The notes beneath the pieces were generated by a model, which made no database searches, was not told where the DNA came from, and worked only from the letters and a program-made list of their open reading frames with translations. Shown here piece after piece: positions 4,422 through 62,448 of a DNA stretch of 64,000 bases. The stretch lies in the IMG/VR virus record IMGVR_UViG_3300045988_154312, positions 160,001 through 224,000 of that record; one strand, given 5' to 3'. How positions within the stretch are numbered: the stretch's first letter is position 1; each line of letters starts with the position of its first letter. Source of the DNA: a virus. The position numbers were made by a program, and so were the translations under genes.

Positions 4422-4422
4422 C

Positions 4423-4830: not shown

Positions 4831-4850
4831 GCCCCCGCCGGGGCGAAATC
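4831..4850 (+). promoter_or_regulatory. GC hairpin + GAAATC motif copy
   Basis: GCCCC-CGCC-GGGGC-GAAATC, about 55 nt upstream of the ATG at 4904. It is followed by the hairpin GAGGGG...CCCTC. Confidence 0.5.
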
Positions 4851-4903
4851 TTCTTTGAGGGGTTCTTCCCTCATATTCGTCGTTCTGTGAAGGAGGAGAA
4901 AAT

Positions 4904-5068: not shown

Positions 5069-5074
5069 TGTAGA

Positions 5075-5107
5075 GGTGCTGGTAAGAGATTGCCGGCACC
5101 TTGCTTT
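5075..5107 (+). terminator. intrinsic terminator (weak T-run)
   Basis: GGTGCTGG...CCGGCACC stem followed by TTGCTTT. Confidence 0.5.
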
Positions 5108-5153
5108 AATTTAGTATTTGATATTTCATTATAAACATGAGGAGGTATACATC

Positions 5154-5300
5154 ATGTTAAAGAAACAATTTATTGGTTGGTTAAACGATTTTTACGCGGA
5201 AAATCCTATCACTTTCCGCATCTTTTGGTTTTTGGTGGGCTGGTTTATCGGCTCCACTGTCAAGATGGCTGTACTACAACATCGTCTAGCAAAACGCTAG
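5154..5300 (+). CDS. small membrane protein (48 aa)
   Basis: ATG preceded by GAGGAGG. Hydrophobic segment FRIFWFLVGWFIGSTV. Confidence 0.6.
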   Translation: MLKKQFIGWLNDFYAENPITFRIFWFLVGWFIGSTVKMAVLQHRLAKR

Positions 5301-5340
5301 CGGTGTAATGATTTCGCTGGAGGGTTAACTTTTGAAGTTT

Positions 5341-5358
5341 CCCCTCCGGGGCGAAATC
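5341..5358 (+). promoter_or_regulatory. GC hairpin (TCC loop) + GAAATC motif copy
   Basis: CCCC-TCC-GGGG-C-GAAATC, followed by the hairpin TGACC...GGTCA and a T-run. Confidence 0.45.
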
Positions 5359-5698
5359 TCCTGTGACCTTCTCATTAATAGTAGGTCATGTTTTATTTCA
5401 TATAAAGCTTTATATGGAATGCTATGAGGTGTATGTTAATGTACTCATAATACCTCCCTTTAATAGATGCTTAACAATCTGATATGTATCTCATAGCATT
5501 CGATATAAGGTTTTATATACCTTAAAGTAAAGCCGTAGACTTAAAAAGTCTTAAGCTGTAGAAGCCGTTGGGACCGGCTCAAAAGAATAAGGACTTTTAG
5601 TCAAACTTCTTAATAAGATGATTTAATATCATCTTTAAAATTGTATAGTCAAATGTTTTATTTGTTATACAAAGTTCCTAACCTTACGGGAGAAGACA

Positions 5699-5717
5699 GC
5701 CCCTCCGGGGCGAAATC
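5699..5717 (+). promoter_or_regulatory. GC hairpin (TCC loop) + GAAATC motif copy
   Basis: GCCCC-TCC-GGGGC-GAAATC, about 200 nt upstream of the ATG at 5918. Confidence 0.5.
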
Positions 5718-5830
5718 TCTCATGGGGCTTTCTGTGTGGAGGTCCCTTTCATACTTTTCTCCTCTCTCTCGCGGTGAGAAACTGCGGGAGATATGAGCGT
5801 TAGATGAGCGTTGACTTATCTAGCGTTGAT

Positions 5831-5868
5831 ATCTCTTGCATGTGTGTTGATGCAAGAGGAGATTTTTT
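5831..5868 (+). terminator. intrinsic terminator inside the 5918 leader (possible attenuator)
   Basis: ATCTCTTGCAT...ATGCAAGAGGA stem followed by GATTTTTT, about 50 nt upstream of the start codon. Confidence 0.6.
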
Positions 5869-5917
5869 CACCACGAGAAGCTCAGTCGTGGTACTTTCAA
5901 AGAAAGGAGACATTTAT

Positions 5918-6625
5918 ATGTCTAAATTTGCAAACGTTGTATGTTATTTGTTCGGCTCCAACTCTAATGGTTGGGCACAAATGTTATCCGCTGTTGTAGA
6001 GGGTGTTCCTGGTGTCCGTGACACCAAACCTGTCAGAATTGAAACAGCAGGTCAATCTTATGTGGGTATGGGCTGTAATGCCGTAGCCCAAATCTTGGAG
6101 TTGTTCGCCAACAAGTCCGTTAATTACGGACAGTTCACTGGTGAAGTAGTGACTAGCGACGCTGTCGCTATCCGCTGTTATTCTATCATGAAAGCTATTA
6201 AAGATGGCTTAACGCCAGCTAAAGTAGCTGACCATGTTATGAAAGAAGCGGATACAGCTGAAGACCGCGAGCAGTTTAAGCGTCTTGCTATGGCAATCAA
6301 AGACTGTCAAAGCCAGGGTGTGCGTCTTCGCATTAGCCGTCTTTCCCAAGAGCACAGTTATGCTCTTGAGGTGCCAGAAGGAGTAGAACTCCAAGCTGGC
6401 GACGTGGTCAAATTTGACCGCGGTGTATCCGAAGACGGTGTCAAACTTGCGTATGGAGTGCAATCCAGCTACGCTTATGAAGTGGCTGAGGTCAATGATG
6501 AGCTTAAAGCTCTCAGACCTAAAAACACTCCAAATAGCAAGCACAGAATGGCGTGCGTTAACGCCACTCTTAACTTGATTCGCGAAATCAAGGCAGAAGA
6601 GGTCTCCGCAGAAGACCTCATCTAA
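5918..6625 (+). CDS. hypothetical protein
   Basis: ATG preceded by AAAGGAGA. 235 aa. The upstream extension to 5804 covers the leader terminator and was rejected. Confidence 0.75.
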   Translation: MSKFANVVCYLFGSNSNGWAQMLSAVVEGVPGVRDTKPVRIETAGQSYVGMGCNAVAQILELFANKSVNYGQFTGEVVTSDAVAIRCYSIMKAIKDGLTPAKVADHVMKEADTAEDREQFKRLAMAIKDCQSQGVRLRISRLSQEHSYALEVPEGVELQAGDVVKFDRGVSEDGVKLAYGVQSSYAYEVAEVNDELKALRPKNTPNSKHRMACVNATLNLIREIKAEEVSAEDLI

Positions 6626-6629
6626 CATT

Positions 6630-6656
6630 GGGGGCATTTTGCCCCCTTTATTTTTA
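6630..6656 (+). terminator. intrinsic terminator
   Basis: GGGGGC-ATTTT-GCCCCC followed by TTTATTTTT. Confidence 0.8.
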
Positions 6657-6678
6657 TTAGTAAAGGAGGGAGCCCCTG

Positions 6679-7167
6679 ATGGCTACTTTTAATATTAAGC
6701 ATTCCAACCAATCTATTCTTGACTATATGAGAGAAAAGATTACGGTTGAGTATAATGGCTCTGTCGAAGATGTCGACGGAGGCATTAAAGTTGAGGTTGA
6801 TGACAATCACCTTAAAGACATTACGGACGCATTCAGCCGTGCGAAACGTAATGCCATGTTCTCAGGCTGGGTAAAATCTGCCACTAAGTTTGTTGGCAGA
6901 CAAGCTGACACTGTGAAAGATGTCGGCATCGGTGCAGTTGGCATTAGCGCCAAAGGTATCTTTGGTGGTCTTAAAAAGACTGCTGAAGTAGCTATGGGTG
7001 CTACTGCTGTAATCGTAAACGAGGGTAAAGAAGCTTGGAAAGAAGCTTCTGTGAGCGATGAGCTCAGAAACCTCAAGAAATCCTTCGGTAGTACTGGCAA
7101 TGATACAGAAGGTATCGAAATCATTAAGGAAGATACTGTAGAAAATACTGCTGGCGAAAGAGCCTAG
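6679..7167 (+). CDS. hypothetical protein (Gly/Ala-rich central region)
   Basis: ATG preceded by AAAGGAGGGAG. 162 aa. Confidence 0.7.
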   Translation: MATFNIKHSNQSILDYMREKITVEYNGSVEDVDGGIKVEVDDNHLKDITDAFSRAKRNAMFSGWVKSATKFVGRQADTVKDVGIGAVGISAKGIFGGLKKTAEVAMGATAVIVNEGKEAWKEASVSDELRNLKKSFGSTGNDTEGIEIIKEDTVENTAGERA

Positions 7168-7366
7168 CAGTATAGACGATTGCTATTAATCGTCGGTAAA
7201 TATTAATAGCAGTTGCTCTAGTTGTCAGGGGCGAGTGTAGGTGACAACCTTATTCTAGTTATTTAGGATATTCCTAACTAGAACTGATAAGATAACTATG
7301 AATATCCTTATTATACAGTAATTTTATGCTTTGGACTGTATAATAGAATAAAAAGCACTAGAAATA

Positions 7367-7421
7367 GGGTTTAGTCTAGAGGAGCAGGGTTTGCTCTTCT
7401 AGGCTAAACCTTTATTTTTTC
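7367..7421 (+). terminator. strong intrinsic terminator closing the GC-rich block
   Basis: An ~18-bp stem, GGTTTAGTCTAGAGGAGC...GCTCTTCTAGGCTAAACC, followed by TTTATTTTTT. Confidence 0.75.
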
Positions 7422-7639
7422 TTATGTTGAATATACATTTAGGTAATACTGTTGTTACAGCGTTAGCTAAATGTATATTTTTTTATAATTCGCGAAAAGC
7501 ATACCGCCTGAGTACGTATGGCGTAATTCGGGTGTCAGCTTTAGCGAAAGTCCATTTTTTTGGACACTTTTGGCAGGGGCTAATTTTTTTAGTGACTGCT
7601 TTTTTTTATCGGAACGATTACGTTTCCGATCGCCAAGAA

Positions 7640-8740
7640 TTATTAAGGAGCGAGCGTCAGCGAGCGAATGTATATTTGTTTGTATATAAGCCCGAGCGAG
7701 CGAAGCGAGCGGAGGGCGTTTATTAGGTTCTCTGTGTACTCTCTTCCAAGAGAGTAGTTTTGTTTATTATTTGTATTGTAAGGCGAGCGAAGCGAGCCGT
7801 TAATATTCTTTGTTTACTTTCTTCTTAAGAAAGTAAGTATTGTATTATTTATTAGTAGTAGTTCTCTGCTATCTCTCTTGTAAAGAGAGTAGTTATGTAT
7901 TATATATATTTATATATGTAGATTCTCTGTTATCTCTCTTCTCAAGAGAGTAATTAGTTATTTATATATATATGTATCATAATAGTATTAACGCAGCGAG
8001 CGAAGCGAGCGGAGTATCTGTTATGTATAGTATATAGTTATTCCCGACGAGTGAGGAGGATACGACGAGCGAGTTGTAGTGTCCTAGCGTAAGCGACGAT
8101 CATAAGAGTATATATTTATATATTATATATAGGGCGAGCGAAGCGACCGTCAGGGAGCGGAGCGAGCATAGTATTATTATATAATATATTATAGGGAGCC
8201 TCAGCGACCGGAGTATATATATAGTCTTATAGGAGCTAGATAGGCAATAAGGATTGATAAGGATTTAGTATATCGTGATATAGTATATCGTATTATACTA
8301 TAGTAGTATATAGTCGATCCTTATTTACAGTAAGAAGGAAAAATCGGCCTTGAATTTCTGGAACCGAAGGTTTTAAAAAATTACGATATTTTCCGCCCGG
8401 GAGTATCTGTATCATATATATAGTAGGGAGCGTTAGCGACCGATGGTATCATATATATACGTTAGTATATATTAAGTATTTTCTGCCGTCGGTATTTTGT
8501 TAAAAGAGAGACTAGTATATGTAATAATAGCCGCTTAGGATATTATGGTTTATATATAATATGTTTTTAGTTAATGTTTTTACTGTACATATTATATGTA
8601 CAGGTATTAAAAACTTTTAGGGTGGGATATCTTATAATAATATTGAACGTCAGTGAAATGTTATTATAGATTTAAATCTTATATTAGATATAATTTTAAT
8701 GAGAGCTATTAATGTGAAGAATAGGGAGCGCCGCGAATCT
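7640..8740. repeat. Dispersed GCGA-rich islands (GCGAGCGAAGCGAGCG-like) in an AT/TATA-rich background
   Basis: Copies near 7648, 7691, 7781, 7991, 8045, 8131, 8192, 8424 and 8721. Three of them are followed by GGAGTAT(C/A)T. Confidence 0.8.
7728..7953. repeat. Four copies of a ~30-nt hairpin unit (TTCTCTG..CTCTCTT-loop-AAGAGAG)
   Basis: Units near 7728, 7811 (variant ACTTTCTT/AAGAAAGT), 7862 and 7922. Confidence 0.7.
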
Positions 8741-37460: not shown

Positions 37461-37502
37461 AATAGTATATATCTATTATTATTACGAAAGGAGGTGTGCC
37501 TC

Positions 37503-38594
37503 ATGAATAAAAGTTTTAAAATTAGAATTTATCCTAACCAAGAACAACAAATATTAATTAATAAAACATTTGGTTGTATTCGATATGTTTATAATTATAT
37601 GCTGAATCTTAAACAAAAAGCATATAATATATTTGAACTTAAAATAAATTTTGTAAAAACATCTAGTATTCTTACAAGACTTAAACAACGTAAATCTTGG
37701 CTTTGCGAAGTTGATGCTGTTGCTTTACAGCAATGTTTAAGAGATTTAGATGCTGCATATACTAAATTTTTTAATGGCTCAGGATATCCTAATTTTAAAT
37801 CTAAACGAGGTAAAAACTCCTATCGTACTAATGGTAAAACTATAACTTTAGATCAAAATAATAAAAAAATTAAAATCCCTAAAGTTGGTTGGATTAAATT
37901 TAGAGATAAAACTAATTTTATTGGTTTAATTAAGATTAATAATATTACTATTTCTAAATCTTCTAGCGGAAAATATTTCGCTAGTATTTTAGCCGAAGTC
38001 GATATTACAGCTTTTGCGAAAACCAAGAAAAGCTGTGGTGTCGACTTAGGGTTAAAAGATTTTTGTATTTTGAACAATGGAACTAAATTTGAAAATCCAA
38101 AATTTTTAGTGCGTAACGAACGACGGCTCAGATTATTACAAAAATCTTTAAGTCGTAAAGTATATGGCTCTAAGAATTATGAAAAGGCCAGAATTAAATT
38201 GGCTAAATTTCATGAATATATAGCTAACTGTCGTAAAGATTATTTGCATAAAATATCATTATTTTTAGTTAAGAACTACGATATTATTTGTGCCGAAACT
38301 TTACAAGTTAAAAATATGCTTAAGAATCGCAAACTAGCTAAAGCCATTAGCGATGTTAGTTGGTATGAATTTTGTCGACAATTAGAATATAAATGCTTGT
38401 GGTATGATAAGAAATTTGTACAAATTAATACATATTTTGCATCATCACAACTATGTTCTAATTGTGGATTTAAAAATTCTGACGTTAAAAATCTCGATGT
38501 CCGTGAATGGACTTGCCCAGAATGTGGACAACATCACGATCGAGATATTAACGCAGCAACTAATATTTTAAATCAAGGATTAACTTTAATATAA
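37503..38594 (+). CDS. tnpB: TnpB (IS200/IS605-family RuvC-like RNA-guided nuclease)
   Basis: 363 aa. SD AAAGGAGG. RuvC motifs CGVDLGLKDF and IICAETLQVKNM, zinc ribbon CSNCG..CPECG, and C-terminal HDRDINAATNI. No tnpA gene is nearby. Confidence 0.85.
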   Translation: MNKSFKIRIYPNQEQQILINKTFGCIRYVYNYMLNLKQKAYNIFELKINFVKTSSILTRLKQRKSWLCEVDAVALQQCLRDLDAAYTKFFNGSGYPNFKSKRGKNSYRTNGKTITLDQNNKKIKIPKVGWIKFRDKTNFIGLIKINNITISKSSSGKYFASILAEVDITAFAKTKKSCGVDLGLKDFCILNNGTKFENPKFLVRNERRLRLLQKSLSRKVYGSKNYEKARIKLAKFHEYIANCRKDYLHKISLFLVKNYDIICAETLQVKNMLKNRKLAKAISDVSWYEFCRQLEYKCLWYDKKFVQINTYFASSQLCSNCGFKNSDVKNLDVREWTCPECGQHHDRDINAATNILNQGLTLI

Positions 38595-44025: not shown

Positions 44026-44581
44026 AGATAATGACGGTGTTCGCATCGGTATTTTTGATAAAATGCTCGAAGAACGAGTATTATTTATCGTCGGAGAGAT
44101 TAATGACGAGTTAGCAAATTCTATCGTTGCCCATTTGTTATATCTTAATAGTAAAGATAGCCGTAAACCAATTACATTGTATATTAATAGTCCTGGCGGT
44201 GTGATTACTTCCGGATTCGCTATCTATGATACGATGAAATTAGTTAAAGCACCAGTTCATACTATCGGTTATGGTATGTGTGCTAGTATGGCTAGTTTTC
44301 TATTAAGTATGGGTGATAAACGTAGTGTATTGCCTAATACATGTGTAATGATTCATCAACCATTGGGTGGCGCACAAGGTCAACAGACCGAAATCGAAAT
44401 CACATATAAACGTATCACATCTCTTCGTGAGAAATTTGAAAAGATGTATGCCGAAAAATCTAACGGCAAATCTTCTTATAAGCAAATTCACGAAGCTTGT
44501 GAACGTGATAATTATCTCGATGCTAAAGAAGCACTAGATATGGGTTTAGTCGATGAAATTATCGGAGGTGAAGACGAATAA
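44012..44581 (+). CDS. clpP: ClpP-family serine protease
   Basis: GTG start. Contains LYINSPGG, GMCASMASFLL (catalytic Ser), MIHQPLGG (His) and ERDNYL (Asp region). Confidence 0.85.
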   Translation: MSVIKDNDGVRIGIFDKMLEERVLFIVGEINDELANSIVAHLLYLNSKDSRKPITLYINSPGGVITSGFAIYDTMKLVKAPVHTIGYGMCASMASFLLSMGDKRSVLPNTCVMIHQPLGGAQGQQTEIEITYKRITSLREKFEKMYAEKSNGKSSYKQIHEACERDNYLDAKEALDMGLVDEIIGGEDE

Positions 44582-45876
44582 TGAAATGTTCATTTTGTGG
44601 TAAAGACATCAACGATAATGAAAATAATCGAGTGACCTTTAGTTCTTCTGTAGACGAAAATATTTTCATCTGCCAAGATTGCGTTGAAAATATGAGTATT
44701 CAGTTGGTCGAAGATAATCCAGATTTAAATTTTGGTGTTAACTTGGAAGAAGATTTTGGTCTCGAAGATACACCAAAACCAAAGGTTAAAAAATCTAAAT
44801 TATTACCTTCACAAATTAAAGAATATTTAGACGAAAGTGTAATTAATCAAGATTATGCTAAGAAAATTTTAAGTGTAGCTGTAGCTAATCATACTAAGCT
44901 ATTAGAATATAATGCACTTAAAAAAGAAAAAACTGGTATCGATGTAGAGAAATCGAACCTTTTACTTTTGGGCAAAACGGGATCGGGTAAGACATGGATA
45001 ATTAAACAAATTTCTAAATATTTAAAACGTCCTTGTGTTATTGCCGACGCGAGTAGCCTTACAAAAAGCGGATTCGTGGGGGAAGATGTAAATAGCATAA
45101 TTGCAAAATTATACAGAGAAGCTGGCGAAGACGTTTCGAAGACTGAACAAGGAATTGTGTACATCGATGAAATCGATAAGATTGCTGCTCGAGATCCTGA
45201 AAACGCAGGTGCTCAAGGTAGTGATATCGGTGGTCGAGATGTGCAATATGAATTATTAAAACTTGTTGAAGGTGGCAAGGTTGCTATTAAAACAGGTGGT
45301 ATGTTAGGTCAAGGTTCGACAGTCGAAATCGATACGACAAATATTCTATTTATTTGTGGCGGTGCCTTTACCGGTATTGAAAAAAAGATTGCCGAACGTT
45401 TAAATAAGTCGATCGATAACGGTTTCGGCTTTACAAATGTAAAGTCCGAAAACGAAATTCAAGATGAAATCACTTACAACGGTTTAATCGATAATATCTT
45501 GCCAGAAGATTTAAGTAACTTCGGTATTATTCCAGAGTTATTGGGTCGATTACCAGTGATTTGTCCGTTAAAAGAATTAAGTATCGAAGATTTAGAAAAT
45601 ATTTTAACACAACCTAAGCATGCTATCTTTAAACAATTAAAAGAATTAGTAAGCATGTATGGTGTCGAATTAGAATTTGATGACGATACGATTCATACGA
45701 TTGCTAAATTAGCTTATGAACGTAAAACTGGTGCTCGTGCACTACGAAGTGTATGTGAAGCATTAGTCGACGATAAGATTTTCGAGATCACTCCGAAGAC
45801 TAAGAAAATTAAAATTACTAAGGAAGATGTCGAAAAGAAATTTGAATTTTATCTAAAGAAGGAGGAAAATGAATAG
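44581..45876 (+). CDS. clpX: ClpX AAA+ unfoldase
   Basis: N-terminal zinc ribbon CSFCGK..CQDC. Walker A at LLLGKTGSGKT and Walker B at IVYIDEIDKI. Contains TGARALRS. TAATG-coupled to clpP. Confidence 0.9.
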   Translation: MKCSFCGKDINDNENNRVTFSSSVDENIFICQDCVENMSIQLVEDNPDLNFGVNLEEDFGLEDTPKPKVKKSKLLPSQIKEYLDESVINQDYAKKILSVAVANHTKLLEYNALKKEKTGIDVEKSNLLLLGKTGSGKTWIIKQISKYLKRPCVIADASSLTKSGFVGEDVNSIIAKLYREAGEDVSKTEQGIVYIDEIDKIAARDPENAGAQGSDIGGRDVQYELLKLVEGGKVAIKTGGMLGQGSTVEIDTTNILFICGGAFTGIEKKIAERLNKSIDNGFGFTNVKSENEIQDEITYNGLIDNILPEDLSNFGIIPELLGRLPVICPLKELSIEDLENILTQPKHAIFKQLKELVSMYGVELEFDDDTIHTIAKLAYERKTGARALRSVCEALVDDKIFEITPKTKKIKITKEDVEKKFEFYLKKEENE

Positions 45877-47697: not shown

Positions 47698-48636
47698 ATG
47701 TTTAAAAATATGATTTGCGGTCTACGTAATTATCTTAAGAATACTTATAATAATAACGTCGACGCACAATATTTAAGTATTTTAACTAATATTATTGCTA
47801 ATGGTACTCGCAAAGAAAACCGTACAGGTACTGCTGCGTATAGTATTCCGCATCAGCGTATGTCTTTTGATTTATCAAAAGAATTCCCGCTGCTGACAAG
47901 TAAATTTGTCGGTCTTAAAACAGCGACGAAAGAAATGTTATGGATTTGGCAAGATAAATCTAACGACGTTAATTTATTAAATAAGAAATACGGCGTTAAG
48001 ATATGGGACGAATGGAAACGTACTGACGGTACTATCGGTAAGGCATATGGTTATCAGTTAGCAAAACAATATAAGTATTTTGACGTCGATGCTGAAAATG
48101 CTTTTAAACTTAAAAAAGAAGGCAAAATTAGTGATTATCGTGTCGGTAAAAATGGCGAAATCTATATGGATCAGGTCGATAAATTAATTTACGATTTACA
48201 TTATAATCGCGATAGTCGACGTATGGTCGTTAGTTTGTGGAATGTCGAAGATCTTAACGATATGGCATTACAACCATGTGCATTTTTAACCGAATGGAAT
48301 GTTACCGATGGTAAATTACATTGTCTACTCAATCTCAGATCGAGCGACTGGTGCATTGGGAGCCCCTATAATATAGCACAATATGCAATGTTAGTATTGG
48401 TATTAGCTAAAACTAGTGGATTAAAACCTGGTAAGTTTACCGTTATGATTAACGACTGTCACGTGTATGAGAATCATCTAAAAGGTGCTGTTCAGCAATT
48501 AGCTAATAAGACATATGCATTACCAAAAGTAACATTAAAAGAAGGCTTCGACAGTTTTTATGAATTCGATGCTGACTGTTTTGAAGTTAAAAATTATAAA
48601 CATAGTGGCAAAATCGAATTTGAGGTTGCCGTATGA
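47698..48636 (+). CDS. thyA: thymidylate synthase (ThyA type)
   Basis: Contains NRTGT, KIWDEW, DSRRMVVSLWNV, LQPCAF (catalytic Cys) and LRSSDWCIGSPYNIAQYA. Confidence 0.9.
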   Translation: MFKNMICGLRNYLKNTYNNNVDAQYLSILTNIIANGTRKENRTGTAAYSIPHQRMSFDLSKEFPLLTSKFVGLKTATKEMLWIWQDKSNDVNLLNKKYGVKIWDEWKRTDGTIGKAYGYQLAKQYKYFDVDAENAFKLKKEGKISDYRVGKNGEIYMDQVDKLIYDLHYNRDSRRMVVSLWNVEDLNDMALQPCAFLTEWNVTDGKLHCLLNLRSSDWCIGSPYNIAQYAMLVLVLAKTSGLKPGKFTVMINDCHVYENHLKGAVQQLANKTYALPKVTLKEGFDSFYEFDADCFEVKNYKHSGKIEFEVAV

Positions 48637-50747: not shown

Positions 50748-51011
50748 ATGGCAAGAAAAAAAGCAGAAACTATTATCGAAGACAAAGCCAAAGTAACTGA
50801 TATCGAACGTAAAAAACGTATCGAACTCGTAATGGCAAATCTTCGCAAAAAAAACGATGGTATTATTGTCGGAAAGCTCAGTGATCCTGAAGTAAAAGAA
50901 CAGCTTCACTTTGAATTTATTCCGACACCATCGATTAATTTTAATTCTGCGACTGGCGGAGGTATTCCTAAAGGAAATGTTTGTATTATCGCCGGTGCAG
51001 AAGATTCGGGT
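50748..51011 (+). CDS. recA: RecA-like recombinase, exon 1
   Basis: SD TAGGAGG. It ends inside the Walker A motif (IIAGAEDSG|), and the in-frame continuation is intron sequence. Confidence 0.8.
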
Positions 51012-51224
51012 AAAATATTTGCCCCTACAATTAGTGATAATTGTATGCAAATTCTGTGATATGCTGGAAAGCCCTATGAGGTAATCAGCAGGCAGCTTAA
51101 TCGCGCCCCAACGACTATCCGTAAGGAGTACGCTACAGAAGTAGCGGAAGCGCAGAACATCTTAATTAAGATGATGATATAGTCTACTCCCCTAATAAAT
51201 ATCGGGAAACCGAGGGTATGAAGG
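51012..51224 (+). mobile_element. ORF-less group I intron (213 nt) in the recA-like gene
   Basis: U at -1 (51011) and a terminal G (51224). An IGS-like GCCC at 51021 can pair with exon CGGGU. P/Q/R/S-like blocks are ATATGCTGGAAAGC, AATCAGCAGGC, CAACGACTATCC and GATATAGTCTAC. Splicing restores GAEDSGKTSLILE. Confidence 0.8.
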
Positions 51225-52136
51225 AAAACAAGTTTAATTCTTGAAACAATCGGTAAGATGCACCGTGAAAACTCAGAAGGTCATTTTGCTTTATGGCTTG
51301 AAAGCGAAGCATCACTAAACTTAGATTATATGGTAAATCAGTTTGGTATCGATCCAGAACGATTTTTCTTTATTCAGTTCGATCGAAACCATTCGGCCGA
51401 ACAATGTTTAGATCAAGCTGAATCATTATTGCAAACTGGCGTATTCGATTTATTCTGTATCAATACATTAAAAGCATTAATTCCAGAATCTGAAATGAAT
51501 AAATCGATGGAACAAATTAATGTTGGTGCCGCTGCGCGAATGAATAGTCGGGCAATGGGTAAATTCGTACCGTTGATTAAACAATATAAAACGGCAATGG
51601 TATTAATCCAACATTTAACGACTAACATCGGTGGTTTTAGTATGTATGGCGACAATTTAATTTTAGCTGGCGGTCGTGCTATTCGTACGGCTAGCATACT
51701 AACTGTCGAAATGCGTAAAGCTAGTATATTGGATACTGATCCTATCGGTAAAGAAGACGGTATTAAAATTAATTGTAAGATTACTAAAAACCATTGTATT
51801 CCGAGAGAATTCCCGTATCGTAAATTTACGTATTATGCAATCTTTGGTGAAGGCATCGAACAAATTCTTAGTACACTCGATGAATTAATCGATATGGGTA
51901 TTATTCATAAAGCTGGTGCTTGGATGCAACAGCTTGATCCAGAGACTGGAGAGATTGTCGACAAATGGAATGGCCGTAATGCCTTTAGAGAAGACATGAA
52001 AGCCAATCCTGATAAACTTGAAAAGCTTAAATCTTTAGTTCACGGTACCTTCGAAACTCTTAGCGAAGAAGAGGTTGTCGAAATTAAAGAACAAGAAAAA
52101 TTAGCCGAAGAAGCTGAAGAGGCTACTAATGGCTAA
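51225..52136 (+). CDS. recA: RecA-like recombinase, exon 2
   Basis: Continues KTSLILETIGK..., with RecA core motifs (LFCINTLKALIP, QINVGAAARMNSRAM, VLIQHLT). The spliced product is about 392 aa. Confidence 0.8.
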   Translation, partial: KTSLILETIGKMHRENSEGHFALWLESEASLNLDYMVNQFGIDPERFFFIQFDRNHSAEQCLDQAESLLQTGVFDLFCINTLKALIPESEMNKSMEQINVGAAARMNSRAMGKFVPLIKQYKTAMVLIQHLTTNIGGFSMYGDNLILAGGRAIRTASILTVEMRKASILDTDPIGKEDGIKINCKITKNHCIPREFPYRKFTYYAIFGEGIEQILSTLDELIDMGIIHKAGAWMQQLDPETGEIVDKWNGRNAFREDMKANPDKLEKLKSLVHGTFETLSEEEVVEIKEQEKLAEEAEEATNG

Positions 52137-54748: not shown

Positions 54749-54939
54749 TGATTATTTCAGATCCAGAGGATAAAGTATATTTTAAATGTCCTCGATGCGG
54801 GAATCGACGATTCGAAAAGGTCGAGTTATTTGAGTTCAAAATGTTCCCACGACAAAATGAATATACTGCATTAAAAGATGCGGATGTTTATCGTTGTCAT
54901 AACTGTAAACATATCGTAACGAAAGATCAAGTCCGTTAA
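54748..54939 (+). CDS. zinc-ribbon protein
   Basis: 63 aa. CPRCG ... CHNCK. Confidence 0.65.
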   Translation: MIISDPEDKVYFKCPRCGNRRFEKVELFEFKMFPRQNEYTALKDADVYRCHNCKHIVTKDQVR

Positions 54940-54957
54940 GGGCTTGGTCTTTTTTTA
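54925..54957 (+). terminator. intrinsic terminator (overlaps the stop codon)
   Basis: GATCAAG...CTTGGTC (one G:U pair) followed by T7. Confidence 0.5.
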
Positions 54958-54975: not shown

Positions 54976-55590
54976 ATGTTAATTAATTTGTACGATTATC
55001 GAATTAACATTAGAACGGCTGGCCCATCGATGCACGATAATTTGCGAAGTGAATTATACTTTGCGGGTTGTCAACGTGCTATGAATGGTACACCATGTAA
55101 GGGTTGTTTTAACTATGATCTATGGCAAAGTGATGTCGGCAGCATGATCGATCACAAATTAATAGTTCTTAAGTTAAACGACATGGGATCTGTTAAGAGT
55201 GTTACGATTGTCGGTGGTGAACCTACTGATCAAATCGATGGCTTAGTTGAATTATGTAAAGAATTAAAAGCTAACGGCTATCATATTATCGTAATCACAT
55301 GGAAGTCGTTAGAAGATATTTGGAAATTTGACGATGTCGATAAATATATCGAGTTATTCTATAACATCGATATGTTAGTCGATGGCGTATACGATGAACA
55401 TCAACGTATCTATGATGATACCGAAACAGTTCCGTTATATAGTTTTGTCGGTAGTTCTAATCAATTAATTCATGACTTCAGTAAGTATATTGAAGGTCAT
55501 AAAGTTTTTAAATCATATCGCATCACAAAAGATATTATCGATATGAAAATTCGTGAAGATGGAGGGGCTGAATTTGTCCGACGTAATTAA
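54976..55590 (+). CDS. nrdG: NrdG-like radical-SAM activase (anaerobic RNR activating protein family)
   Basis: Contains FAGC..8..CKGCFN, TIVGGEPTDQ, MLVDGVYD and VGSSNQLIHDF, matching the NrdG layout. Confidence 0.55.
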   Translation: MLINLYDYRINIRTAGPSMHDNLRSELYFAGCQRAMNGTPCKGCFNYDLWQSDVGSMIDHKLIVLKLNDMGSVKSVTIVGGEPTDQIDGLVELCKELKANGYHIIVITWKSLEDIWKFDDVDKYIELFYNIDMLVDGVYDEHQRIYDDTETVPLYSFVGSSNQLIHDFSKYIEGHKVFKSYRITKDIIDMKIREDGGAEFVRRN

Positions 55591-56050
55591 TATTAAAGAA
55601 ACATTAATTAATACATCATTAATTTTAGATCAAGATAAAAAGAACTTTTCTATTAAATACGATCTTAATATCGATGAAGACGATGCTGTATTAAATTTTA
55701 GCATTACTAGTGCTGATAATAAACAAACGATTACTGAACATTTAGATTGGGATGAAGATGTTATCCCGATGCTAAGTAAATGTATTAAAGGTAAATGTTC
55801 GTTAACAGAATTAAAACAATATAACGATTATGTTAAAACATTAGTCGCTGAAAAATTTACGTTAGATTTTCTTAATGGTTTCGTCGATACTCTCGAAATA
55901 TTCTATCAAGAAGTATGTAAAATTAGCGATAGAACTATTGCTGCTAAACTTAATAGTGGTTTTACCGAAACTATTAAGACAATGGATATTTTTATTACTC
56001 AAATGAATGAATATCTCGAAGAAGATAGAAAAATTAGTTTGAGTGCTTAA
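55553..56050 (+). CDS. hypothetical protein (start uncertain)
   Basis: 165 aa. It overlaps the previous gene by about 38 nt. Confidence 0.55.
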   Translation: MKMEGLNLSDVINIKETLINTSLILDQDKKNFSIKYDLNIDEDDAVLNFSITSADNKQTITEHLDWDEDVIPMLSKCIKGKCSLTELKQYNDYVKTLVAEKFTLDFLNGFVDTLEIFYQEVCKISDRTIAAKLNSGFTETIKTMDIFITQMNEYLEEDRKISLSA

Positions 56051-56075: not shown

Positions 56076-57146
56076 ATGGATAATCTTAAATTAATTAACA
56101 TGGGTAAAGGTAACGGCTATCGCCCTGTCGTATGGATTAAATCTTTAGAACGCGAACGTGCGATGTCTTATGTATTTAATCTTATCGACGAAGATAATCG
56201 TAGTTTAGGTTCTTCTGATTTAGAAGATTGTTTCGCAGAAACAGAATCTAAAAAAGTATTGGTATTATCTCCCGAAAGATTTTTAGGAGAGTTTAATCTT
56301 AATTCTTTAAAAAATAAAAAAGAGCGTTCTTTCGACTATAACGAAGATATTAAAGTAATCGATACGCTTAAAAATAAACAACAAATTCGTAATGCATTAA
56401 TGGCATTAGAAGCATTAAAAGAAAATGAATTAAAAGGTTTGCCTGCATTATTTATCGAGCCAAATTTATTGTTTACGAATGAAACATATTTGTATTTGTT
56501 TAGTAATATGATTAATTTTAAAGCCGATGGTTCTGCTATTTATGTCGTATCAACAGTAAGTCCTAATGAAAAGATTAAGAACTTATGCTACGAAATTGAT
56601 CTCGATGCTCTTACGCTAAAAGAAATCAAACGTTATTTAAATAAATATGAATGTGAAGACATCGATAAATGTGCCGAAGCTTTGTTAGGTCTTACGTATA
56701 TTCAAATGTTACAAACTATTGAATATGTAGCTGATAATAAGACTATTAACGAAGCTGAAATTCATAAATTTAAATCTGAAAACTTCGATACAAGTATGCT
56801 CGAAGTAAGTCATCCTACTATGTCTGTCGACGATATGGGTGGCTATAAAGATTTTAAAGATTATGTAAAAACATTACCAATGTTCTATACAAAAGAAGCA
56901 CGCGAAAAGCATATTAAATCTCCTAAAGGTTTTATTGCGTTTGGTGTGCCAGGTTGCTCTAAAACTGTATCGGCAAGTATTATTGCAAATACATTAAATG
57001 TTCCGTTAGTTAATATTAATTTGAGTAAAATTATGCAAGGCTTTGTTGGTGCTTCTGAAGCTAATATGGAACAAGCACTTAACCAAGTAAAACAGTTAAA
57101 ATACTGTGTCTTGTTGCTTGACGAAGCGGAAAAGCTCTTTGGCGGT
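56076..57146 (+). CDS. Ycf46-like AAA+ ATPase, exon 1
   Basis: Walker A at FGVPGCSKT and Walker B at VLLLDEAEKLFGG|. The ORF then runs into a stop 9 nt later, inside the intron. Confidence 0.8.
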
Positions 57147-57159
57147 TATTATTAAGAGT

Positions 57160-57188
57160 TTGCAAATACCTTTTTTATCCTGTAATAT
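57160..57188 (+). promoter_or_regulatory. possible SigA-type promoter for the intron ORF
   Basis: TTGCAA, a 17-nt spacer, then TAATAT. Confidence 0.35.
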
Positions 57189-57222
57189 ATAGTTAAATAC
57201 TAGTTATTTACAGGAGTTTAAC

Positions 57223-58407
57223 ATGGAAAACAATAAAAATAAATGGATATTCTATACATGTAAAAATTGTAGCTCGGAATTTAAACGTATGAGATGCGAC
57301 GTTAATTTTCGAAAAAAGAAAAATCCAGACTTTGAACCATTATTTTGTTCAAAAAAATGCATGCATGAATTTGCTCATAAAAACATTGTATATCATGACT
57401 ACATCTGTCTTGAATGTGGAAATATGTTTCAAAAAAGTGAGCGAGAAATTAAAAATGCTAATAAAAAAAATCAGCCTATAAAATTCTGTTCTCGAGAATG
57501 TAAAGATAAACATTGGGGACGTAATCAGTTAAATGTAAAATGTGATTGCTGTGGGAAAGATTTTAAGGTACAACGAAAATTTAAAAACAAAAAACATTAT
57601 TTTTGTTCTTCTAATTGTTGTAAAAAATTTAATGAAGATAATAATCTTCGAGGAACAACTATTGATTTAATTTGTAAAAAATGCGGAAAGACTTTTACAG
57701 TTACAAATAGTTATCTTAAAAAACAATTAAAAAGAAAACAAAATGTAGTATATTGTTCATTAGAATGTAAAAATTCTGATCATGAAAATTTTAAAAAAAA
57801 ATATGATTACAAATTAGAAAGTTTAAAATGTGATTATTGTGGCAAAAGAATAGAAAAAGGTTTAAATCGATTAAAAGATTATTTTCTTGGTAAAAATAAA
57901 CACATTTATTGTTCTAATGAATGTGCCACTTTGGCAAAGAAAAAACAAATCGAAGTTTCTTGTGACTATTGTCATAAAAAATATACTATAAATGAATATC
58001 GTTTTAAAAACAATAATAAAAATTTTTGTTGTTTAGAGCATAAGAAAGCATTTGTTCAAAAAGAAAAAGAAACGTATGCAGAAATATCGCATTATTTAAG
58101 AACATCTAAAAAATATAATACATGGAGGCTTTCATGTATGGAACGAGATAATTTTAAATGTGTAGAATGTCATGAAGATTCTAACTTAATTGTTCATCAT
58201 ATTAATGAATTATATAATATTGTAAAAAAATATAATTTTATTTTAGATGACATATTAAATAGTTTTGAATTTAATGACATAAATAATGGTATGACATTAT
58301 GTAAAGAATGTCATAATAAAAAACATCCATGGTTAAAAGATGAAAAAGGAAGATTTGTAAATAGCATAGCCGCGTCATTATCAACAGATTCAGAAGATAA
58401 TGACTAG
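57223..58407 (+). CDS. HNH homing endonuclease with six tandem zinc-ribbon repeats
   Basis: C-terminal motif CVECHEDSNLIVHHIN...NNGMTLCKECHNKKH. The N-terminal ~270 aa hold six repeats of C-x2-C-x(15-25)-(F/Y)C(S/C)xxC. Confidence 0.85.
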   Translation: MENNKNKWIFYTCKNCSSEFKRMRCDVNFRKKKNPDFEPLFCSKKCMHEFAHKNIVYHDYICLECGNMFQKSEREIKNANKKNQPIKFCSRECKDKHWGRNQLNVKCDCCGKDFKVQRKFKNKKHYFCSSNCCKKFNEDNNLRGTTIDLICKKCGKTFTVTNSYLKKQLKRKQNVVYCSLECKNSDHENFKKKYDYKLESLKCDYCGKRIEKGLNRLKDYFLGKNKHIYCSNECATLAKKKQIEVSCDYCHKKYTINEYRFKNNNKNFCCLEHKKAFVQKEKETYAEISHYLRTSKKYNTWRLSCMERDNFKCVECHEDSNLIVHHINELYNIVKKYNFILDDILNSFEFNDINNGMTLCKECHNKKHPWLKDEKGRFVNSIAASLSTDSEDND

Positions 58408-58660
58408 CTTTGGGGAAAAAATCTGGAAGGCTAAGTTGTATTAATATACAATATGCTAATCAGAGGTGAAGGTTTAATAAAATTAAACCAGCCGCAACGC
58501 GTAGTAGGTGAAAAGATATAATCCTACCAAGAGGCCCCAACCCTATGAATCTTTTATAAAGGTGAAAAGGTACGCTAAACTGGATCGGAAAAGACCGATC
58601 GATGAAAATGAAGGAAACTTCCAGAGCTGTATGTAAAAATATACAGGATAATAACATATG

Positions 58661-59227
58661 TATGCAAGTTCTAATAGTACTGATGGAGGCACTTTGTCTC
58701 GTGTAATGAGTCGTTTGTTAACATTCTTGCACGAAAATGAAAATACACTTACTATCTTTACTAGTAACGATATTACGAAGTTACCTCCAGAACTATTACG
58801 TGCTGGACGTATCGACAGTCAATGGTATTTCCCAGTACCTAATAAGAAAGAAGCTCGTGAAATCTTAGATATCTATTTAGCAAAATATGATATTAAAGTA
58901 ACGCCAGCTATGATGAAACATTTAATGTCTGGTATCGATAAATTTACTGGTGCTGAAATCGAACAAACTGTAATTAATTTACAACGTGTATTGTTCTTAA
59001 ATCAAACAGAAACATTGACTAAGAAATTAATCGAAGAAGCATTAAGTACTATCGTACCAGTTACACGTAGCTCTACCGATGCAATTCGTATGCTCGAAGA
59101 ACATGCTCGTCGCTTTGCTGTGTATGCATCTAAACCAGAAACTGATCTTATTAATGATAATGAAGACGAAGATTATTCTGTGTTTCAAGACGACGAAGAA
59201 GACGAAGCAGTAAGTATGTTTAAATAA
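58661..59227 (+). CDS. Ycf46-like AAA+ ATPase, exon 2
   Basis: Contains TIFTSNDITKLPPELLRAGRIDSQWYFPVPNKKEAREIL (sensor and arginine-finger region). The spliced product is about 545 aa. Confidence 0.8.
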   Translation, partial: YASSNSTDGGTLSRVMSRLLTFLHENENTLTIFTSNDITKLPPELLRAGRIDSQWYFPVPNKKEAREILDIYLAKYDIKVTPAMMKHLMSGIDKFTGAEIEQTVINLQRVLFLNQTETLTKKLIEEALSTIVPVTRSSTDAIRMLEEHARRFAVYASKPETDLINDNEDEDYSVFQDDEEDEAVSMFK

Positions 59228-59243
59228 GGAATTAGATTAATAA

Positions 59244-59615
59244 ATGGCAATTATTAAGTTTAATGCTAATGCAAATGCTAAAAAAGAATCTAATTCTGAA
59301 AAAGCTAAAGCATTAGCAAAACAATTAAATGAAAAAGCTGATAAGAAATTGAAGGAGGAGGCACAGATTCTCATTCGAGATATCAATGTCTGCCTTCAAT
59401 CTCTTCAAGCTTTCGAAGCATTAACAGAAGATGTATTTCCCGTAAGTGAAGTATTAGCCGACACATTATCGACTATTACACGAGTTATTATTGACTCTAA
59501 GGGGAATACATTCTATAATGATAGTAAGGCAGTCGAACTTCGTCAAAAAGCGAAAAAAGGCTATATTAAACGAACTTTTCCTAAAGAATATAAGTTCGTT
59601 AAAGATAATATCTAG
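59244..59615 (+). CDS. hypothetical protein
   Basis: 123 aa, Lys/Ala-rich at the N-terminus. Confidence 0.6.
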   Translation: MAIIKFNANANAKKESNSEKAKALAKQLNEKADKKLKEEAQILIRDINVCLQSLQAFEALTEDVFPVSEVLADTLSTITRVIIDSKGNTFYNDSKAVELRQKAKKGYIKRTFPKEYKFVKDNI

Positions 59616-59624
59616 GTAATATAT

Positions 59625-59649
59625 AATTACGATACCGTAATTATTTTTA
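59625..59649 (+). terminator. intrinsic terminator
   Basis: AATTACG-ATAC-CGTAATT followed by ATTTTT. Confidence 0.5.
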
Positions 59650-59693
59650 CAATATATACGTATATTTTATTTTAAAACAGGAGGACAATTATT

Positions 59694-60101
59694 ATGTCTA
59701 AATACGTACGTCAACAAATCGAAACTTTATCTGATGTGGATCAATCCGTTTTCATGCAAATGATGCAAGACGATCGTTTTGAAAAAGGCTTTACAGTCGA
59801 CTTCGACGATAAACGCCTTGCTGACAATTACTATGGCGTAACAGTACCAAGAGATCAACGTGATGTTGATTGCACTGTTCGCATCAATGGTAAAACTCAA
59901 GTCGGTCTTGTATTCAAAGAAGATGGTAAACTTGAAATCCGTGGCGATTTCTGGGGCACTAGCATGTCTTTGAAAACTTTGTCCGAACAATTGGGTATGT
60001 TGTATCAAGCATATAACTTTGCTTATCAATTGGACGCTATGAATTTCATGGGTCAAATCGAACAAACTCAAGATTATATCGAACTTACTTATACTCGATA
60101 A
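59694..60101 (+). CDS. DUF1257 (Ycf35)-like protein
   Basis: SD CAGGAGGA. Contains VGLVFKEDGKLEIRGDFWG, which resembles the DUF1257 signature. Confidence 0.45.
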   Translation: MSKYVRQQIETLSDVDQSVFMQMMQDDRFEKGFTVDFDDKRLADNYYGVTVPRDQRDVDCTVRINGKTQVGLVFKEDGKLEIRGDFWGTSMSLKTLSEQLGMLYQAYNFAYQLDAMNFMGQIEQTQDYIELTYTR

Positions 60102-60111
60102 TATAAATAAT

Positions 60112-60148
60112 AAGGGGTCGTTTTTCGGCCCCTTTTATTTATTTTTTT
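60112..60148 (+). terminator. intrinsic terminator
   Basis: AAGGGGTCG-TTTTT-CGGCCCCTT followed by a T-rich run. Confidence 0.8.
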
Positions 60149-60175
60149 AGTTAATCAGAAAAGGAAGATTTAAAA

Positions 60176-60364
60176 ATGCAAGAAATTAAAATTCGTATTA
60201 CAAAAGACGGTCAAGTTACATATGAAACTCAAGGTTTCCAAGGTCAATCTTGTGAACAAATCGTTCAACAAGTAATGGTATCCAATGGTAAAGTTGAAGA
60301 AGATACTAATAAACCAGAATACTATGATAGTGTACCTGAATTTATTAATAACATTGGTAACTAA
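60176..60364 (+). CDS. DUF2997-like small protein
   Basis: IKIRITKDGQVTYETQGFQGQSCEQ...PEYY matches my recollection of the DUF2997 pattern. Confidence 0.45.
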   Translation: MQEIKIRITKDGQVTYETQGFQGQSCEQIVQQVMVSNGKVEEDTNKPEYYDSVPEFINNIGN

Positions 60365-60379
60365 TAAATAAGAAAAATA

Positions 60380-60407
60380 AGTCGGCAGTTAATTCTGTCG
60401 ACTTTTA
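60380..60407 (+). terminator. intrinsic terminator
   Basis: AGTCGGCAG-TTAATT-CTGTCGACT followed by TTTT. Confidence 0.7.
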
Positions 60408-60479: not shown

Positions 60480-62448
60480 ATGTCTAAGTTATTAGAAGGT
60501 CTAAATGAACAACAATTGCCTGTAGCAAAACGCATTAACGGAAAATTTATCGTTAATGCTAGTGCCAGGCAGTGGTAAGACTGCAACTATCGTTACTCGT
60601 ACTGCTTATATGATCGAACAAGGTATCGATCCTGCCAATATTTTAATGTTTACATTTACTCGTAAAGCAGCACTTGAAATGAAAGAACGCATGATTGCTA
60701 AAATCGGTGCAATTGCTAAACCAGTTACAGTATGTACATATCATTCTTTCAGTTCTATGTTATTAAGAAAATTTTCCTATCTTATTGGATATGAAAATAA
60801 CTTCACAGTATGTGATGCTGACGAGAGTGAAAAAATCATTAAAGATATTTGTGGTTCTAATATTAAATTAAAAGACGTTGCGATCATTATGATCGGTCAA
60901 TGGAAAACACAAGGTTTAACATATACTGAAGCTAAGCAAGATAAAGAAATCCAAGCTAATTTTACATTAGCTGCCGATGTCTATGAGAAATACCAACGTA
61001 AATTAGAATCCGAAAACATGATGGATTTTAATGATCTAACTATGTTAGCTGCTCGTATTTTGAATAACTATACAGAAGTGCAACAATACGTTTGGAATAA
61101 ATATAAATACGTTATCGTCGACGAAGCCCAAGATAGCGCGGTTTCTAACTGGTATTTCATTAACAAGATTGCTGAAGGCAATGAAAACTTATGCATGGTT
61201 ATGGATAATAATCAAAGTATTTATGCATTCCGTGGTGCTGAAATTGATTTCATCTGTAAGCAAATTGTCGACGGTGGTTTCGATCAATACGTGTTAGAGC
61301 AAAATTATCGCTCTACTAGCAATATTGTTAATGCAAGTAATGCCGTTGTCGATAATAATCCAGCTATTATTAAAAAAGAAGCTTTTAGTAAACAAGATGC
61401 TGGTACTAAAATTTACGTTAAGCAAGTTAATGATCAAACTGCTGAATCTGAATATGTCGTAAGAAGTATTCATGCCGCAGTTAAAGGCGGTCTTAACTAT
61501 AAAGATATTTGTATTTTAGCTAGAACTAAACGTCAATTTGAAATTTTTGAAAAAACTTTTTTAAAATGTGCAATTCCTTATACATTAGTAAGTGGTTTAC
61601 CATTTTGTAATCGTAAAGAAATTAAAGATATTCTAGCTGTATTAAGATTGCTGTTAAATAATAAAGATGAAGAAGCATTAAAACGTATTATTAATATTCC
61701 TAAATGTGGTATTGGCGATGCATCCTTTAATAAATTAATGTTAGAATGTGGTGAATCTAGCGTTATTGAAAAAGCTAAGAAAAATGTAATGCTATTAAAA
61801 GGCAAGGCTAAAAAAGGCGCCGAAACATTCTTGAAAAAGTTTGGTAGAGTCGTAAAATTTGCTCAAGAAAATGTCGAACCAGCATTAATTATCGAATATT
61901 ATTTAAATGAATTTGATTATAAAAATTATTTGATCGAGTCCTATCGCTCTGAAGAAGACAAAGAAAAAAATGACGAAGACAAAACTCAAAACGAAGCTTG
62001 GACTCGTCAAAAGAATGTCGATGAGTTAATTCATATTGCGGAAGAATATGATTGTGTAAGCGATCTATTAGAATCGACATTAGGTTTCGACGAGGAATCT
62101 GTCGAAGAAGAAGAACGTGATGCTGTTAGCCTTATGACTATTCATGCATCTAAAGGTCTTGAATTCGATATGGTATTTATCGTTGGCGGTAATGAAGGAT
62201 TATTCCCTCACCAAAATTCTTTAAACGACATTGCTCAGATTCAAGAAGAACGTCGTCTATGGTATGTAGCTATGACTCGAGCTAAAAGCATTCTAAGCAT
62301 TTCTTACTTCAATTTATATAAACAATTTGGTCAAACTAAAGTATTAAAAGGTAGTCGCTTTATCGAAGAGATTCCGTCTGAATTTAAAAAAGAAAGTTTA
62401 ATGGAATCTAAAAAAGTTAAAGTTGAGAATATTGATAATTTATTTTAA
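60480..62448 (+). CDS. UvrD/PcrA-like SF1 helicase; needs a +1 frame change near 60567
   Basis: The ATG at 60480 (SD GAAAGGAGAGG) encodes MSKLLEGLNEQQLPVAKRINGKFIVNASA and stops at 60576-60578. The next frame carries GSGKT from 60556 on, plus the motifs VIVDEAQD, QNYRS, MTIHASKGLEFD and LWYVAMTRA. Confidence 0.8.

Follow-up and report, generated by a model that had tools for sequence, protein, structure and literature searches.

A candidate mobile-element module linking a Cdc48-like, intron-split AAA+ ATPase to DUF1257 and DUF2997 proteins in phages and plasmids

Ycf46, Ycf35 (DUF1257) and DUF2997 have long been listed as 'conserved hypothetical' protein families in cyanobacteria and plastids. 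Genes resembling all three lie close together in a 64,000-nucleotide (nt) stretch of DNA from a gut jumbo phage (positions 160,001 to 224,000 of IMG/VR record IMGVR_UViG_3300045988_154312; hereafter the window), in which an AAA+ ATPase gene interrupted by an intron is followed by DUF1257- and DUF2997-like genes. This row, to which an earlier note made from the letters of the window had drawn attention, raises the question of whether the three genes belong to one system and, if so, what that system would do. We consider it probable (at roughly 0.6) that they form a conserved mobile-element module, in which a Cdc48/p97-like protein-remodelling ATPase, a DUF1257 protein and a DUF2997 protein work together.

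Relatives of the ATPase were collected from 76 viral and 80 bacterial-genome loci and their surroundings searched with custom hidden Markov models; ATPase lineages were defined as clusters at 70% identity (n=63), and neighbourhoods as 8 kb. DUF2997 is encoded in the neighbourhood in 25 of the 63 lineages (19/31 viral, 6/32 genomic), 15 of which have a detectable DUF1257 gene too, and at least one locus scored as 'DUF2997-only' has a diverged DUF1257 gene adjoining. Viral loci gathered from the other side, with DUF1257 as the seed, have DUF2997 adjacent in every case (8/8) and the ATPase in all those with enough upstream sequence (7/7). Gene order is variable, and the DUF pair can precede or follow the ATPase. 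The trio is found in known phages (Aeromonas phage HJ05, Pseudomonas phage SM1, Rhizobium phages) and, under names given by the annotation pipeline PGAP, in seven of eight plasmid loci inspected; trio-bearing plasmid loci come from Pseudanabaena, Geminocystis, Planktothrix, Paenibacillus polymyxa, Bacillus licheniformis, Manganitrophus and a Rhizobium phage-plasmid. Wherever the host element can be recognised, the carriers are phages, plasmids, phage-plasmids or putative prophages. The tendency of the three genes to co-occur in phages and bacteria, which the earlier note had put forward, is real, and goes far beyond chance.

In three phage loci representing two ATPase lineages (L050, L059, L063), DUF1257 and DUF2997 are fused into one protein encoded beside the ATPase. 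Nothing else in the sequences argues as strongly for the two proteins acting as a complex, which, being joined into a single chain in some phages, they probably form.

In the window, the ATPase gene is interrupted within its catalytic domain. Taken separately, exons 1 and 2 match PF00004 only partially (profile positions 4-71 and 74-130); the unspliced frame of exon 1 is a 359-aa open reading frame (ORF; 56076-57155) with the terminus ...LLLDEAEKLFGGYY before its stop, and the frame of exon 2 is a 189-aa ORF (58658-59227) whose start falls inside the AAA domain. Joining position 57146 to position 58661 yields a 545-aa protein with a single continuous match (residues 289-415, profile 4-130), which scores 88 bits against a cutoff of 21.2 and does so only with the intron removed. 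Two intron-less alleles (P0001 and P0002; 98% and 97% identical, each of 545 aa), encoded on contigs without the insertion, read ...LLLDEAEKLFGGYASSNSTDGGTLSRV..., the same as the predicted splice product, and their junction ...DEAEKLFGGYASSNSTDGG... (DEAEKLFGG followed by YASSNSTDGG) is exactly the predicted one. The split at DEAEKLFGG, ascribed in the earlier note to a homing-type intron, is thus confirmed, and its exact limits are settled.

The joined protein contains GVPGCSKT, DEAEKLFGG and TSNDITKLPPELLRAGRID, together with an acidic tail. Alignments with homologues (17-22 sequences, down to 20% identity) span its full length, including the N-terminal domain; K296, D349/E350, N393, R407 and the pore loop V324-G325 are invariant in them, and R404, the first arginine finger, nearly so. 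The ATPase thus has the residues that define the classical clade: the Lys of Walker A, the DE of Walker B, the Asn of sensor 1, a pair of arginine fingers and a pore loop with an aromatic or hydrophobic residue before Val-Gly. Among solved structures, its active domain comes closest to D2 of VAT, Cdc48 and p97 (E about 1e-84 to 1e-90). A clamp-loader reading, suggested by weak PHROG matches, was rejected as generic P-loop similarity (E about 1e-5, against 1e-65 for the family's own PHROG).

Pfam gave no match to the N-terminal 245 residues, and inspection for Walker A and Walker B motifs found neither. This domain aligns to the ATPase's own sensor-1/lid region (hhalign 96%, E 3e-9), and an AlphaFold2 model of the whole protein (predicted local distance difference test, pLDDT, 74.6) superposes over 570-590 columns on D1+D2 of p97, Cdc48, Rix7 and 55LCC (E about 1e-21, template modelling score, TM, 0.55-0.59). 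Sequence and model together make the ATPase a Cdc48-like tandem whose D1 has lost its nucleotide site, and we regard the D1-like fold as established. With Walker A and B missing from that domain, the protein resembles the type II AAA+ enzymes (Cdc48/p97) without being a member; it shares with Cdc48, p97 and VAT the D2 similarity, the D1+D2 superposition and the pore-loop, Walker and arginine-finger residues, but, unlike them, it has no double-psi-barrel N-domain.

The Ycf46-type layout that the earlier note had read from the window is recognisable in the architecture (~545 aa, with an N-terminal ~250-aa domain and one active AAA module), in the motifs and in the label 'AAA domain-containing protein ycf46' that IMG gives to a protein in the same 90% cluster. 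Ycf46 (Synechocystis Slr0374, S. elongatus Synpcc7942_0417) and the phage ATPase are both proteins of ~500 aa in which an N-terminal ~250-aa domain precedes a single classical-clade AAA module with the common pattern DExEK...DSG...LLTxxxE...T(S/A)N(D/N)...LPPEL.R.GR.D; Pfam, NCBIfam and PHROGs contain no Ycf46 model, and the phage ATPase is a candidate relative of Ycf46 by architecture, motifs and label. Homologues on cyanobacterial plasmids are 33-35% identical to a related phage ATPase over 83-91% of its length. Ycf46 is encoded in two model cyanobacteria within a three-gene stress operon, along with two small hypothetical proteins (PMC7496141; bioRxiv 10.1101/2025.07.21.665879), and ycf35 and ycf46 tend toward joint loss in freshwater red algae (PMC5940233). 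Whereas Ycf46 is a chromosomal stress/CO2-response gene, the ATPase described here is phage-borne and intron-split.

As to the two small proteins, the DUF2997 assignment made in the earlier note was recovered directly by Pfam (PF11211; 48.3 bits against a cutoff of 24.1, E 9.2e-13, profile 1-47 of 47). A G-x-x-C motif is present in every DUF2997 match long enough to cover it, usually as G-F-x-G-x-x-C, and the first Gly of G-F-x-G is replaced in 15 of 77 distinct sequences. The DUF1257 assignment failed the same direct test (no PF06868 match in Pfam even at E <= 10) but held up in profile-profile comparison, in which the clade of the 135-aa ORF can be aligned over its full length to DUF1257 proteins that Pfam does recognise (hhalign 98%, E 2.4e-13, 123 columns). 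A relative 97% identical to it is named 'DUF1257 domain-containing protein' in UniRef, in a jumbo phage further removed (L010) the syntenic protein has a weak PF06868 match, and the profile of the wider DUF1257 set (A8) retrieves almost only PF06868 proteins. An initial homologue search with the 135-aa ORF gave near-identical gut-phage proteins only, tblastn of the same ORF against GenBank phages gave no match, and searches of Protein Data Bank (PDB) sequences with the DUF1257 and DUF2997 profiles gave chance-level matches only. The earlier note had described the pair as two genes downstream of the ATPase; more exactly, they are the second and third genes there, because an ORF of 123 aa intervenes.

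The insert in the ATPase gene is, to judge by its sequence, a mobile group I intron, predicted to splice. It lies three codons past Walker B, its excision restores the reading frame precisely in comparison with the intron-less alleles, and an intein is excluded by in-frame stops and non-coding flanks; an active ATPase would require the intron to splice out. Rfam model RF00028 fails on the introns of the window and of relatives with an ORF-less intron (12-13 bits against 50, in the P4-P5 region only), so the structure was built by hand and tested by covariation. P1 has a U.G pair at the 5' splice site, the U being the last exon base, while the omega-G ends the intron and the internal guide GCAUA-GCCGC pairs with both exons, with exon 2 in P10 and with exon 1 in P1. 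The structure further includes P2-P7, a P7.1-like hairpin, P9-P9.2 and a P3/P7 pseudoknot (73 pairs; P8 was left unassigned). Across nine sequences 99.7% of cells are paired, a value equalled by 0 of 500 shuffles, and eight pairs (in P2, P6, P9 and P9.1) have compensatory changes; P1, P3, P4, P7 and P10 are invariant, which is consistent with the structure and uninformative as a test of it. The 394-aa ORF within the intron matches PHROG 1271 'HNH endonuclease' (1.2e-21) and, slightly below the cutoff, Pfam HNH (19.6 bits against 21.4), and occupies the P1 loop, with the 5' splice site before it and the internal guide after it.

The intron is found at the identical nucleotide position in 10 close relatives, and at the same site in a second phage clade; the ~90% identity of the intron between the two clades, set against an ATPase identity of only about 57%, points to lateral spread. 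Full-length copies occur in the window and in L020, L023, L024 and L039-L041; copies of 300-362 nt without the ORF, in which the final codons of the endonuclease ORF remain visible, occur in L015-L019, L021, L030 and L033-L038; and the intron is absent from L012-L014, P0001 and P0002. Group I introns with endonucleases are known from other phages, as in the DNA polymerase intron of Bacillus phage SPO1 (I-HmuI), the introns of Staphylococcus phage Twort and T4 td, nrdB and sunY. The present intron, of the self-splicing type, shares with them a site in a highly conserved catalytic motif, a host gene in a DNA-metabolism block, a free-standing putative endonuclease ORF outside the core, presence or absence among close relatives and decay to ORF-less forms, and differs from the classic examples in having an AAA+ ATPase as its host gene, an ORF in the P1 loop and a structure missed by the Rfam model. 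The earlier note's further suggestion, that the intron marks an essential gene, does not follow: a conserved motif as target is what homing needs and is no proof of essentiality. One locus (L042, 9514-11154) has, besides the ORF-less intron at the DEAEKLFGG site, a second ORF-containing insertion right behind RAGRID of the ATPase gene.

The module appears to extend beyond the trio, to an NrdG-like radical S-adenosylmethionine (SAM) gene. At least seven contexts unrelated to one another have this gene beside the ATPase or the DUF pair: viral L045, Campylobacterota L089, Spirochaete L096, contig L170, P. polymyxa pPPM1a, a Treponema plasmid and B. licheniformis pBL141-2. On pPPM1a the order is ATPase-DUF1257-DUF2997-radical SAM, and gaps of a few bases are seen there and also in L096 and L170; within 8 kb it occurs in only 7 of the 25 DUF2997-positive lineages. 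The best NCBIfam match of the window's protein is NrdG, at 63.2 bits and below the equivalog cutoff of 126.1. Its cluster motif, like that of the other jumbo-phage proteins, is CX8CX2C, owing to a five-residue insertion, while orthologues in other elements have CX3CX2C; the 64-kb window was searched for an NrdD-sized ORF and contains none. A DUF3150 protein is encoded in 13 of the 25 DUF2997-positive lineages as against 3 of the 38 negative ones, and the Manganitrophus plasmid carries an annotated DUF3150 partner. The sequences themselves are already in databases under automatic DUF and ycf46 labels; the novelty lies in defining the module, with its fusion, pseudo-D1, radical-SAM and DUF3150 partners and series of mobile introns.

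In Pseudanabaena galeata, plasmid pPg_01 (L172, 589-8746) carries the trio within a chaperone-linked cluster, in the order GrpE, Hsp70, DUF1257, ATP-binding protein, hypothetical protein, DUF2997, AAA ATPase and a 734-aa protein.

How might such a module work? We infer hexamer formation, threading, partner contacts and a biological role as follows. The ATPase would form a hexameric ring and thread or remodel protein through its single active AAA ring; the DUF1257-DUF2997 complex would be its dedicated cofactor or adaptor, or its client; and a lineage-specific extra component (the radical-SAM protein, or DUF3150 in its place) would accompany this core. Cdc48, p97 and VAT also depend on small dedicated cofactors, although DUF1257 and DUF2997 are unrelated to the Cdc48 cofactors UBX and Ufd1-Npl4.

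Several points weigh against this proposal. The oligomeric state and threading follow from family membership only. As many as 38 of the 63 ATPase lineages have no detectable DUF partner within 8 kb, which indicates that the ATPase can work alone or with other partners; these lineages, mainly from Clostridia, Thermoanaerobaculia, mycobacteriophage cluster O and a streptococcal satellite, have other conserved neighbours. Cyanobacterial chromosomes have a duf2997-ycf35 pair with the ferredoxin Fed7, and no adjacent ATPase is reported there (PMC4284462). The AlphaFold2 model of the DUF1257 protein is moderate (pLDDT 66.6; beta-alpha-beta3-alpha), and a Foldseek search with it found no significant neighbour, the best being domain 4 of phosphoglucomutase (E 0.07, TM about 0.4). 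Finally, the searchable literature is silent on the phage trio and holds no experiment on any of its members.

In the Clostridia/Ruminococcus loci without DUF partners (L088-L152), the ATPase is flanked by two other conserved proteins of ~500 aa, and a WYL-domain protein is often encoded as well, which suggests a different partner set in that branch.

Foremost among the other explanations, though we think it improbable, is that the locus serves radical or iron-sulfur maintenance: DUF2997 and DUF1257 would together carry redox equivalents, sulfur or a radical for the NrdG-like enzyme, as one small carrier, and the ATPase would be its activase or reactivase, acting much as Rubisco activase/CbbX or the dehydratase reactivases do when they reset a stalled enzyme, and supporting the anaerobic nucleotide supply of the phage. 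The repeated adjacency of the radical-SAM gene speaks for this, as do the G-x-x-C motif of DUF2997, the nucleotide and DNA metabolism setting provided by ThyA, ThyX and RecA neighbours, and the Hsp70 and GrpE genes added to the cluster on the Pseudanabaena plasmid. So does the link of the DUF pair to a 4Fe-4S protein, which the phage locus shares with the duf2997-ycf35-fed7 cluster (PMC4284462), even if that partner is a ferredoxin in the cyanobacteria and an NrdG-like radical-SAM enzyme in the phage. Yet only a minority of DUF2997-positive lineages have the radical-SAM gene nearby, a lone cysteine is insufficient to bind a cluster, and the radical-SAM protein may simply be the phage NrdG, with NrdD encoded outside the window. 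A classical glycyl-radical motif was considered for DUF2997 and weakened by the motif survey, since the loss of the first Gly in 15 of 77 sequences argues against an R-V-x-G-Y site.

Less plausible still is a role in host take-over or anti-defence, in which the ATPase, with the DUF proteins as adaptors, would unfold host defence or replication proteins early in infection or after plasmid entry. The carriers would suit such a role, being mobile elements wherever they can be recognised; the trio lies in early regions beside cI-like repressors, and its neighbours on plasmids include toxin- and defence-type genes (zeta toxin, RloB, Fic, PIN). The AAA core also resembles IetA and SgiA, ATPases that have a protease partner within a defence or toxin-antitoxin system (PMC10954446). 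That resemblance to the ATPases of IetA/IetS and SGI1 SgiA/SgiT (AAA+ ATPase plus subtilase) amounts to 74-82 bits, however, and is that of a generic AAA core: the phage ATPase reaches 74 bits against an IetA cutoff of 510, has a different N-domain and has no protease neighbour, and PADLOC assigned no defence system and matched neither DUF protein. The module is not a known defence system. Synteny in DNA-metabolism blocks, from gut phages to Bacillus pBL141-2, would moreover be unusual for fast-evolving counter-defence genes, and the Ycf46 and Ycf35 of cyanobacteria and plastids are housekeeping or stress genes.

A more elaborate scheme, a hitherto unrecognised radical or redox protein system of mobile elements in which the NrdG-like enzyme acts on DUF2997 held by DUF1257 (to generate or carry a protein radical, persulfide or iron-sulfur species) and the Cdc48-like ATPase loads, resets or delivers it, strikes us as quite unlikely; were it true, its chemistry would also account for the unexplained Ycf35/DUF2997/Fed7 and Ycf46 genes of cyanobacteria and plastids. 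That the three proteins are independent, their linkage reflecting nothing more than inherited synteny, is very improbable and largely refuted, for while the whole 10-kb block is syntenic in the jumbo-phage clade and makes linkage there little informative, the linkage recurs across phyla with shuffled order, in elements with otherwise unrelated neighbours, and the DUF1257-DUF2997 fusions tell against it too. The module reading, with the ATPase and the DUF pair working together, is thus the one that we prefer.

On that reading, joint travel on phages and plasmids across many phyla, together with the fusion and the extra partners, unites the three orphan families in a single system open to testing, for which Aeromonas phage HJ05, Pseudomonas phage SM1, the Rhizobium phages, Paenibacillus pPPM1a and Bacillus pBL141-2 are cultivable starting points. 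The trio would be a widespread early-region module of jumbo phages that are very abundant in the human gut, and the range of intron states (absent, ORF-less or full, in genes with one intron or with two) offers a clean natural series for following spread between diverged phages.

The gene row of the window is given in Table 1. No terminator-like site was detected on the + strand between 54953 and 60112, which fits a single unit running from the radical-SAM gene through DUF1257; the strong hairpin that follows might give the DUF1257 and DUF2997 partners unequal expression levels.

Table 1. Features of the ATPase locus and its flanks, in window coordinates.
Feature	Position	Strand	Basis or remark
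Terminator-like hairpin	54921-54953	+	Upstream of radical-SAM gene
NrdG-like radical-SAM protein, 204 aa	54976-55590	+	Pfam Fer4_12 (1.7e-16) and Radical_SAM
165-aa ORF, between radical-SAM gene and ATPase	55553-56050	+	Conservation restricted to jumbo-phage clade
AAA+ ATPase, exon 1	56076-57146	+	Degenerate D1-like N-domain, Walker A GVPGCSKT, pore loop GFVG, Walker B DEAE
Predicted group I intron, 1514 nt	57147-58660	+	Intron-less alleles, hand-built structure
Putative HNH homing-endonuclease ORF, 394 aa	57223-58407	+	PHROG 1271; Cys-rich repeats, then HNH
AAA+ ATPase, exon 2	58661-59227	+	Sensor 1 TSND, arginine fingers RAGR, lid domain, acidic C-terminal tail, stop
123-aa ORF, clade-specific	59244-59615	+	Between ATPase and DUF1257 gene
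Divergent DUF1257 (Ycf35-family) protein, 135 aa	59694-60101	+	Profile-profile match
Terminator-like hairpin between DUF1257 and DUF2997 genes	60112-60134	+	9 pairs, 6 G-C, then T-run
DUF2997 protein, 62 aa	60176-60364	+	Pfam PF11211, motif GFQGQSC
Terminator-like hairpin closing the unit	60379-60404	+	

Two ORFs of the row have no assigned family. The 165-aa ORF has no Pfam, PHROG, NCBIfam or PADLOC match, and ORFs of 156-270 aa are syntenic to it in L005, L006, L008 and L010. Profile searches, including PADLOC, matched no family to the 123-aa ORF either; an ORF of L006 is 44% identical to it, and it is unrelated to the post-ATPase ORFs of other lineages, such ORFs being homologous within one lineage only. 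The possibility that the two are diverged DUF3150 proteins was rejected (hhalign probability <1%).

The location of the ATPase within a replication/recombination block, as described in the earlier note, is evident from its RecA, uracil-DNA glycosylase (UDG), Rad52-like, ThyA and UvrD neighbours. Relatives show the same synteny over the block RecA / UDG / Rad52-like / radical SAM / ATPase / DUF pair / UvrD, which has ThyA upstream in the window and ThyX in relatives, and this block is syntenic in pBL141-2, a 205-kb linear element of Bacillus licheniformis. Megablast of the region against GenBank phages gave no match; near-identical genes are present on hundreds of metagenomic contigs of 215-235 kb, and one source of such genes in NCBI and UniRef is 'Myoviridae sp. 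ctJ2i1'.

Further features of the window and of related phages were seen in passing. The UvrD-like helicase gene (60480-62448) has a one-base insertion inside Walker A: it reads ...VNASARQW and then a stop, with PGSGKT continuing in another frame, where relatives have ...VNSSAGSGKT. Its tblastn pieces are 60480-60566 and 60568-62445, and the gene has either suffered an assembly error or is a pseudogene. The recA gene (50748-52064) also seems to be split, residues 1-89 of a relative's protein matching at 50748-51014 and residues 81-368 at 51201-52064, and the ~190 nt inserted between them could be another intron, again without an ORF. A second AAA+ protein, of the ClpX/HslU type (AAA_2 and ClpB_D2-small), is encoded 10 kb upstream at 44581-45876, followed by the ThyA gene at 47698-48636. 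Genes of the TnpB/IS605 OrfB type occupy varied sites in related phages (window 37494-38594, L005 8225-9478, L006 1184-2272), and in L005 one of them separates the ATPase from the downstream ORFs. The first 8 kb of the window (1-8000) have a G+C content of 40-43%, as compared with 22-35% elsewhere in it, and the ORF at 11-1690 encodes a C-terminal YpsA/SLOG domain.

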